Positions 31,266 to 31,515 of a stretch of 48,989 nt of DNA are shown piece after piece; within the stretch, counting starts at the first letter, position 1, and every line of letters begins with the position of its first letter. A program made the position numbers and the translations under genes. This DNA is from a virus (taxonomy: Duplodnaviria; Heunggongvirae; Uroviricota; Caudoviricetes). The notes under the pieces were generated by a model, which saw nothing but the letters and a program-made list of their open reading frames with translations, was not told the origin of the DNA and ran no database searches. The stretch lies in IMG/VR virus record IMGVR_UViG_2541047945_000011; one strand, 5' to 3'.

Positions 31266-31339
31266 CGCGCTGTACTGGATTCGAACCAGTGACCGATTGC
31301 TTAGAAGGCAATTGCTCTGTCCGGCTGAGCTAACAACGC
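31266..31339 (-). tRNA. argO: tRNA-Arg (anticodon UCU)
   Basis: Hand-folded cloverleaf: acceptor GCGTTGT/ACAGCGC, T-arm ACTGG-TTCGAAT-CCAGT, anticodon loop CTTCTAA; no encoded CCA. Confidence 0.75.
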
Positions 31340-31439
31340 TGAATACCGATAATGGACCGCCATCGGGGACCCGCCCCCGCACCAACAACCCTGTTATCGC
31401 GTCGTCTGCTCTTCCTGATAAGCTAATGGCGGTTTGTGA
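31340..31439 (-). ncRNA. tRNA-like element, possibly a degenerate third tRNA
   Basis: 7-bp acceptor stem CCGCCAT/ATGGCGG plus T-CCA and a D-stem, but non-canonical 6-nt T-loop and no clean anticodon arm. Confidence 0.3.
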
Positions 31440-31515
31440 TGGTGGCCCTTGCTGGATTTGAACCAGCGACCTGGCGATTATGAGTCGCTCGCTCTCACCA
31501 CTGAGCTAAAGGGCC
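31440..31515 (-). tRNA. ileZ: tRNA with CAU anticodon (tRNA-Ile2-like or tRNA-Met)
   Basis: Cloverleaf GGCCCTT...AAGGGCC-A-CCA, T-loop TTCAAAT, anticodon loop CTCATAA. Confidence 0.8.

Follow-up and report, generated by a model that had tools for sequence, protein, structure and literature searches.

Between two tRNA genes of an Escherichia coli lambdoid prophage lies a gap of 100 nt (31340-31439) that resembles a tRNA gene in part. Is it a spacer, a tRNA of unusual decoding, a non-decoding tRNA-like RNA, or the remains of a tRNA gene? The window analyzed here is the whole stretch of 48,989 nt of the virus record IMGVR_UViG_2541047945_000011, and all coordinates refer to it. The analysis leads, with a probability of about 0.85, to the reading that ileZ-argN-argO, a late-operon tRNA cluster of lambdoid (Stx-phage-like) E. 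coli prophages, occupies this region, and that the middle member is a co-transcribed argN pseudogene. This member is designated as the argN relic.

The tRNA cluster and its surroundings

A segment of 401 nt around the cluster is found at 100% identity in many E. coli chromosomes, and its identity to phage mEp460_ev081 is 99.3%. All features of the cluster are on the minus strand, in the order ileZ, relic, argO, and they are listed here together with the elements upstream:

31659..32480, minus strand: Q-type late antiterminator gene, a 273-aa ORF, directly upstream of the tRNA cluster
31611..31653, minus strand: putative pR'-like late promoter and initial transcribed region, read by eye
31551..31578, minus strand: tR'-like intrinsic terminator, strong, between the late promoter and the tRNAs
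31440..31515, minus strand: ileZ, tRNA with a CAU anticodon and an encoded CCA (ARAGORN; Rfam, 72.5 bits)
31433..31439, minus strand: spacer UCACAAA of 7 nt between ileZ and the relic (alignment with Stx2 phage WGPS8)
31353..31432, minus strand: argN relic, an 80-nt tRNA-like cloverleaf (lowest-energy fold and alignment to argN)
31340..31352, minus strand: spacer UUAUCGGUAUUCA of 13 nt between the relic and argO (alignment)
31263..31339, minus strand: argO, tRNA-Arg(UCU), reader of AGA/AGG, with the tRNA body at 31339..31266 (ARAGORN; Rfam, 68.0 bits)

The sequence-only reading had proposed a cluster of prophage tRNAs, two of them well formed and specific for rare codons, and these two flanking genes proved to be ileZ and argO, recognized by both ARAGORN and the Rfam tRNA model RF00005, whose gathering score is 29 bits. 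ARAGORN alone types the CAU tRNA as Met. The PGAP label for it is tRNA-Ile in the genomes that are 100% identical to the 401-nt cluster query, and in GenBank the sequence shows no difference from the annotated ileZ of the Stx2 phage WGPS8. This tRNA body is thus annotated as Ile and not as Met, and it is a predicted lysidine-dependent reader of AUA (tRNA-Ile2).

The PGAP label for argO is tRNA-Arg, and ARAGORN places tRNA-Arg(UCU) at 31265-31339. The encoded 3' end of argO is CUA, not CCA (31265..31263), so maturation would need trimming and the CCA-adding enzyme. The CUA end was found in 16 of 110 relic-type loci versus none of 82 loci whose middle element is of the argN type (class A), and it is a sign of erosion that extends to argO. 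A promoter-like sequence on the plus strand, TTGACA-16-AACAAT (10/12; 31174-31201), faces argO and, behind it, the other genes of the cluster in the antisense direction; it is no more than a match to the consensus.

The product of the Q gene is 100% identical to the protein that PGAP names 'antitermination protein' (WP_000762915.1, E. coli SCU-172). The pR'-like promoter consists of a -35 element TTGATT (31653..31648), a 16-nt gap and a -10 element TAAATT (31631..31626), and AACGATGGG is found past the -10 element at 31619..31611. This TTGATT/TAAATT pair resembles lambda pR'. It is absent from the list of the promoter scan because its score is under the threshold of 9/12. The tR'-like terminator, placed at 31578..31559 by the scan, has a 7-bp stem in which 5 of the pairs are GC, and TTTTATTG comes after the stem. 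Given this arrangement of the Q gene, promoter and terminator upstream, it is most likely that ileZ, the relic and argO are transcribed as one precursor from the late promoter on Q antitermination. A weak isrK-like match (31555-31626, minus strand; 15.6 bits against a gathering score of 50) lies over the pR' leader and the tR' terminator, and it fits a short terminated late-promoter transcript as in other lambdoid phages.

Downstream of the cluster are DUF3927, the sRNA STnc100, an iraM-like gene on the other strand, and a SASA/NanS-type esterase. The slot of DUF3927, STnc100 and iraM is the slot of stx in Stx phages, and the window includes no stx. STnc100 (30377-30566, minus strand) scores 132 bits, and in Stx phages a copy of it directly follows stxB. 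The iraM-like anti-adaptor gene (30016-30351, plus strand) has a GC content of 34% and is encoded on the strand opposite to the late operon. Elsewhere in the window, a hokD/sok type I toxin-antitoxin pair was found at 34725-35049 (minus strand), with a score of 106.7 bits for sok and 100% identity of hokD to an annotated gene. In the early/immunity region (42621-43100, plus strand), DicF (71.5 bits), isrK (67.7 bits) and the C4 antisense RNA (81.9 bits) are clustered. A tRNA-Ser(CGA) gene at 48009-48098 (minus strand) adjoins the integrase gene (region 46931-48098). The closest annotated genome has a frameshift in the integrase gene, which gives no intact translation in the window either; this region is likely the attachment site of a possibly defective prophage.

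Structure and identity of the middle element

ARAGORN detected no tRNA in 31340-31439, neither at -ps80 nor with introns allowed, and no tmRNA; RF00005 gave no match in the same interval even at E<=10. The scans with tRNA and covariance models, which had been suggested from the sequence, thus support the flanking two genes and do not fold the middle element as a normal tRNA. The sole call over the relic came from the mitochondrial mode of ARAGORN at the 80% threshold, which is meaningless for E. coli. The Rfam scan of a 500-nt region at E<=10 revealed no family match to the element, only YrlA, Trp leader and snoRNA at chance level. The YrlA match (RF02553; 17.6 bits against a gathering score of 69, E=0.57) covers part of ileZ as well as the relic, and a Plastid-ycf2 match on the plus strand is merely the complement of ileZ.

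The lowest-energy fold of 31432..31353 (80 nt) is a cloverleaf. Its acceptor stem of 7 bp, CCGCCAU/AUGGCGG, is followed by the discriminator U and CCA, so all three features that had been noticed from the sequence are borne out by the fold. The D-arm is canonical, GCUU-AUCAGGAA-GAGC, with a 4-bp stem, A14, G18G19 and A21. At the position of the anticodon arm, a 6-bp stem GACGAC/GUUGUU closes an 11-nt loop GCGAUAACAGG (31406..31384). The sequence-only reading had seen no obvious anticodon arm here. This description is otherwise accurate, but an arm is in fact present, and it is non-canonical: the relic is without the 5-bp stem and the 7-nt loop with U33 and an anticodon at 34-36, and ARAGORN assigns no anticodon. 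The variable region is GGUG. The T-stem CGGGG/CCCCG carries a loop of 6 nt, GCGGGU (31374..31369), which is the non-canonical T-loop that had been pointed out and is without the canonical 7-nt U54-U55-C56/A58 arrangement.

The identity of this element was clarified by comparison with Stx phages. Stx2 phages align with the window over the whole cluster at about 88% identity, and they are annotated with ileZ, argN and argO. In Stx2a_WGPS8 (AP012540, 933W type), as in the window, the cluster lies between Q on its upstream side and, on its downstream side, the stx/cargo slot with a nanS-like esterase. The order and the strand are the same, the total length is near-equal, and the spacers are near-identical; the counterpart of the UCACAAA spacer reads TCACATA, and the 13-nt spacer UUAUCGGUAUUCA of the window is shared by some loci with an intact argN. 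The two ileZ genes do not differ, and a single base separates the two argO genes within the tRNA body. The two clusters differ in the downstream slot, which has stx in the WGPS8 type and DUF3927, STnc100 and iraM in the window, and in the 3' end of argO, which is CUA in the window and not CCA. They also differ in the middle slot: argN of WGPS8 is intact and scores 53.6 bits, whereas the slot in the window has no score. ARAGORN identified this intact homologue as tRNA-Arg(UCG).

The relic and WGPS8 argN are identical in the 5' strand of the acceptor stem, U8-A9, the 5' half of the D-arm, the 3' acceptor strand, the discriminator and CCA. Between these identical ends, about 50 nt are sharply divergent. 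As the ends are identical and the slot is the same, the middle element is therefore an allele of argN. The idea that the segment is a mere spacer with a coincidental tRNA-like look would agree with PGAP, which leaves it unannotated in the window-type genomes among the matches listed. However, the ends match argN of Stx2 phages base for base, intermediates connect the relic to intact argN, and the idea, refuted by the alignment, can practically be dismissed.

The intermediates are mosaics. In phiP27 (NC_003356, a Stx2e phage), only ileZ and argO are annotated, and the gap between them is about 101 nt (L124, 1477-1577). This gap includes the same replaced anticodon-arm sequence, GACGACACGATAACAGGGTTGTT, as the window. 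phiP27 keeps the canonical T-loop UUCGAGU and C13, while the T-loop of the window is further degraded to GCGGGU. A sequence identical to the phiP27 type was found in an O139:H1 Stx2e prophage (L215, 378-458), where PGAP calls it 'tRNA-OTHER'; in the phiP27 record it is unannotated. phiP27 and the Stx2e prophages thus represent one mosaic, a replaced anticodon arm with a canonical T-arm. The other mosaic, locus L059, has an intact UCG anticodon arm with a G-rich T-loop. These two mosaics indicate that the lesions of the anticodon arm and of the T-loop are separable.

The steps that would have led to the relic are as follows. About 28 nt spanning the anticodon arm would have been swapped for unrelated sequence that happens to form a hairpin, and the T-loop would afterwards have lost its conserved UUC to become GCGGGU. 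The similarity of the central 28 nt of the relic to argN is no better than that of shuffled sequence (p=0.40). No donor of the 28-nt replacement was found in the window and about 210 fetched loci; distant blastn against the phage collection returned only the locus itself and chance matches in Mycobacterium phages, and in E. coli genomes all matches of a 31-nt query had at least 80% coverage, with no separate donor among them. The GTDB species representatives gave matches in E. coli alone. An inversion of argN as the source of the segment was rejected by eye.

What had been suspected to be a decayed or unusual tRNA is accordingly a positional homologue of argN with a replaced decoding arm and a degraded T-loop. 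The anticodon nucleotides are identity elements for ArgRS. As the relic has no 7-nt anticodon loop with C35 and no canonical T-loop, tRNA biology predicts that it would be neither arginylated nor decoding, and if it were excised from the precursor, it would probably be degraded.

A working tRNA with an expanded anticodon loop, which decodes a quadruplet or a recoded codon, is very improbable. It would be in line with the intact acceptor stem, D-arm and CCA, and with the label 'tRNA-OTHER' given by PGAP/tRNAscan to the phiP27-type variant. The loop of 11 nt without U33 in its usual context argues against it, and we know of no precedent for decoding by such a loop. The loop is also polymorphic at two sites, the T-loop of the window is without the UUC needed for the D/T elbow, and ARAGORN and the Rfam tRNA model reject the relic even at loose thresholds.

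Variation, constraint and prevalence

Two scans of IMG/VR loci were used for the analysis of variation. The first required nothing but the end of ileZ and the start of argO as anchors, and 120 loci in two classes were recovered. ARAGORN calls a tRNA in the middle slot in 83 of 88 argN-type loci versus none of 38 relic-type loci. The argN-type class includes canonical argN in many variants. The Rfam scores of the argN slot form a decay series of 56.3, 53.6, 45.3 and 42.9 bits, and fall below 29 bits in two further argN lineages with acceptor mismatches and in the relic. The scores of ileZ (68.4-72.5 bits) and argO (68-71.7 bits) are kept in every scanned locus.

Among the argN-type sequences (38 distinct sequences), the cloverleaf is 95% paired and no compensatory double changes were found. 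In distinct lineages, the pairs 1-73, 2-72, 6-68, 32-40 and 53-63 include unpaired cells. By comparison, ileZ hardly varies and one allele of it dominates, and the T-stem of argO has a compensatory change, CACTGG/CCAGTA versus CAGTGG/CCACTA. The absence of covariation and the presence of unpaired cells in argN, unlike in ileZ and argO, therefore mark the argN slot as the weakly constrained member of the trio.

The second scan was anchored on the 5' half of the relic and gave 119 usable loci. Over these loci, the G-run of the T-loop varies from G4 to G16, and U8 is replaced by G in some; runs of at least 9 G co-occur with this U8G change. The variation of the G-run was seen in L034, L084, L119, L120, L134, L151, L155 and others, and it could be due to homopolymer slippage or, in part, to assembly error. 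Three mutations of the 3' acceptor strand, ATGACGG, ATGGCGA and ATAGCGG, are uncompensated. Relic loci also include a deletion in the T-stem, and truncations or deletions by which the 3' part is lost or which extend into argO. These disruptive and uncompensated changes over the 119 loci are the pattern of a decaying pseudogene. The relic would persist because it sits between two selected tRNAs and rides on successful prophage modules.

Breakpoints of recombination or deletion were also observed inside the cluster. In 5 of about 200 loci, argO is cut in its anticodon loop, between CTTCTAAGCAG and CTGTGG. In L130, L132, L150, L198 and L127, the break in the relic comes after GGGTTGTTG or in the T-stem, and in one case a deletion has joined the relic to argO.

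The central 28 nt of the relic have only two SNP sites over the 119 loci. The comparison with the 3' part of the relic, two events versus about six, is a rough estimate and shows no significant difference, and the loci have diverged little. That the central segment hardly varies fits a recent origin.

The frequency of the relic was examined in 5,426 complete E. coli genomes, as follows:

100-nt relic query: 1,760 genomes matched, 1,723 of them at a coverage of at least 80%; no annotation among the window-type matches listed
Central 31-mer of the relic: 1,819 genomes; mostly unannotated, a few 'tRNA-OTHER'
Stx2-type argN allele: 1,175 genomes; tRNA-Arg
Some form of the cluster (401-nt query): 3,065 genomes; tRNA-Ile and tRNA-Arg among the matches listed

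The relic allele is thus present in about one-third of complete E. coli genomes and is commoner than the intact argN allele that was queried. Within the relic class, the more degraded form is the commonest, and the better-preserved phiP27 type is rare. In the 185,579 species representatives of GTDB, a 25-nt motif of the relic was found only in E. coli, and the relic allele seems to be confined to this species.

These data bear on the proposal that the relic has been domesticated as a functional tRNA-like RNA, a non-decoding molecule such as a scaffold for the processing of ileZ and argO or a decoy for proteins that bind or cleave tRNA. Several observations are in accord with it and tell against a pseudogene: the structure of lowest energy is a CCA-ended cloverleaf, the central 28 nt hardly vary, the allele is carried by about one-third of E. 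coli genomes, and the replacement segment forms a 6-bp hairpin with G-U pairs. This 23-nt hairpin was more stable than 200 of 200 shuffles (z=-3.7), but its boundaries were picked after folding and the significance hinges on that choice; in the 28-nt version of the test, 14.6% of shuffles folded equally well, which is not significant. The same two values, p=0.40 and 14.6% of shuffles, led to the rejection of the idea that C-G to A-U differences between the argN stem and the relic stem are compensatory changes made under long structural selection. The proposal is further weakened by the absence of compensatory changes and by the disruptive nature of those observed, which include the G4 to G16 slippage, U8G, acceptor mismatches and truncations. 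The commonest form being more degraded than the rare phiP27 type also speaks against it, and the restriction to E. coli among the species representatives suggests a recent origin instead of long-term conservation. No Rfam family matches the element, the best being YrlA far below its gathering score. YrlA and the tRNA-like domain of tmRNA are known as non-decoding partial tRNA mimics, but they show no significant match to the relic. A domesticated RNA is therefore unlikely. The more specific proposal, that a module swap exchanged exactly the anticodon arm, kept the acceptor, D and T stems together with CCA, and created a decoy for tRNA nucleases or an ileZ-argO scaffold, is unlikely as well.

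Codon supply and the significance of the relic

The codon usage of 48 intact prophage genes in the window was compared with that of 43 chromosomal genes from a closely related strain. The rates per 1,000 codons are given below with the odds ratio as the fold difference, and all five differences have p<2e-4:

AUA: prophage 7.3, host 2.8, 2.7-fold
AGA: prophage 5.4, host 1.0, 5.2-fold
AGG: prophage 4.6, host 0.7, 6.9-fold
CGA: prophage 7.2, host 3.5, 2.1-fold
CGG: prophage 14.9, host 4.6, 3.3-fold

The flanking tRNAs had been proposed to support the translation of AT-rich cargo genes. The enrichment of AUA, AGA and AGG in the prophage agrees with a supply role, but the excess is prophage-wide and not specific to cargo: AUA and AGG peak in early genes and AGA in lysis genes. 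iraM is the single cargo gene that is AT-rich and at the same time rich in AUA (6 of its 111 codons), and AGA and AGG do not occur in it. A supply role is plausible, in which ileZ and argO would add to the host tRNAs for codons that the prophage over-uses throughout. CGA and CGG, the codons of argN, are over-used too, so the loss of argN is not obviously cost-free.

The cluster itself has been known for a long time. The 1999 genome paper of 933W reportedly described the ileZ-argN-argO trio adjoining stx in 933W-type phages, and the 2002 genome paper of phiP27 is said to have described the ileZ/argO pair. The GenBank annotations agree with both, with the trio in WGPS8 and the pair in phiP27. 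The literature search returned no paper with ileZ as a gene name, or with argN together with tRNA and Stx, and no description of this particular relic was found in it. Variants of the trio beside stx2i were annotated as 'tRNA-pseudo' ('tRNA-pseudo-tRNA-Arg') in a 2026 paper (PMC13641118). The trio is short of one member in most strains with these stx2i prophages, as it is in the window. Unlike in the window, the pseudo label seems to stand in place of the first tRNA, with only two genes annotated; the comparison covered the annotation.

The relic is an ordinary tRNA pseudogene within a known cluster, a feature known in kind, and it opens no new question. Its recognition averts the misreading of the 100-nt gap as a novel RNA, and explains the reports of 'tRNA-OTHER' and 'pseudo' in this slot. 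Among the three members of the cluster, ileZ is near-invariant, argO is maintained with a compensatory change, and argN has been lost repeatedly despite the over-use of CGA and CGG. This ranking suggests that the supply of tRNAs for AUA and AGA/AGG matters to these phages, while the supply for CGA/CGG does not.
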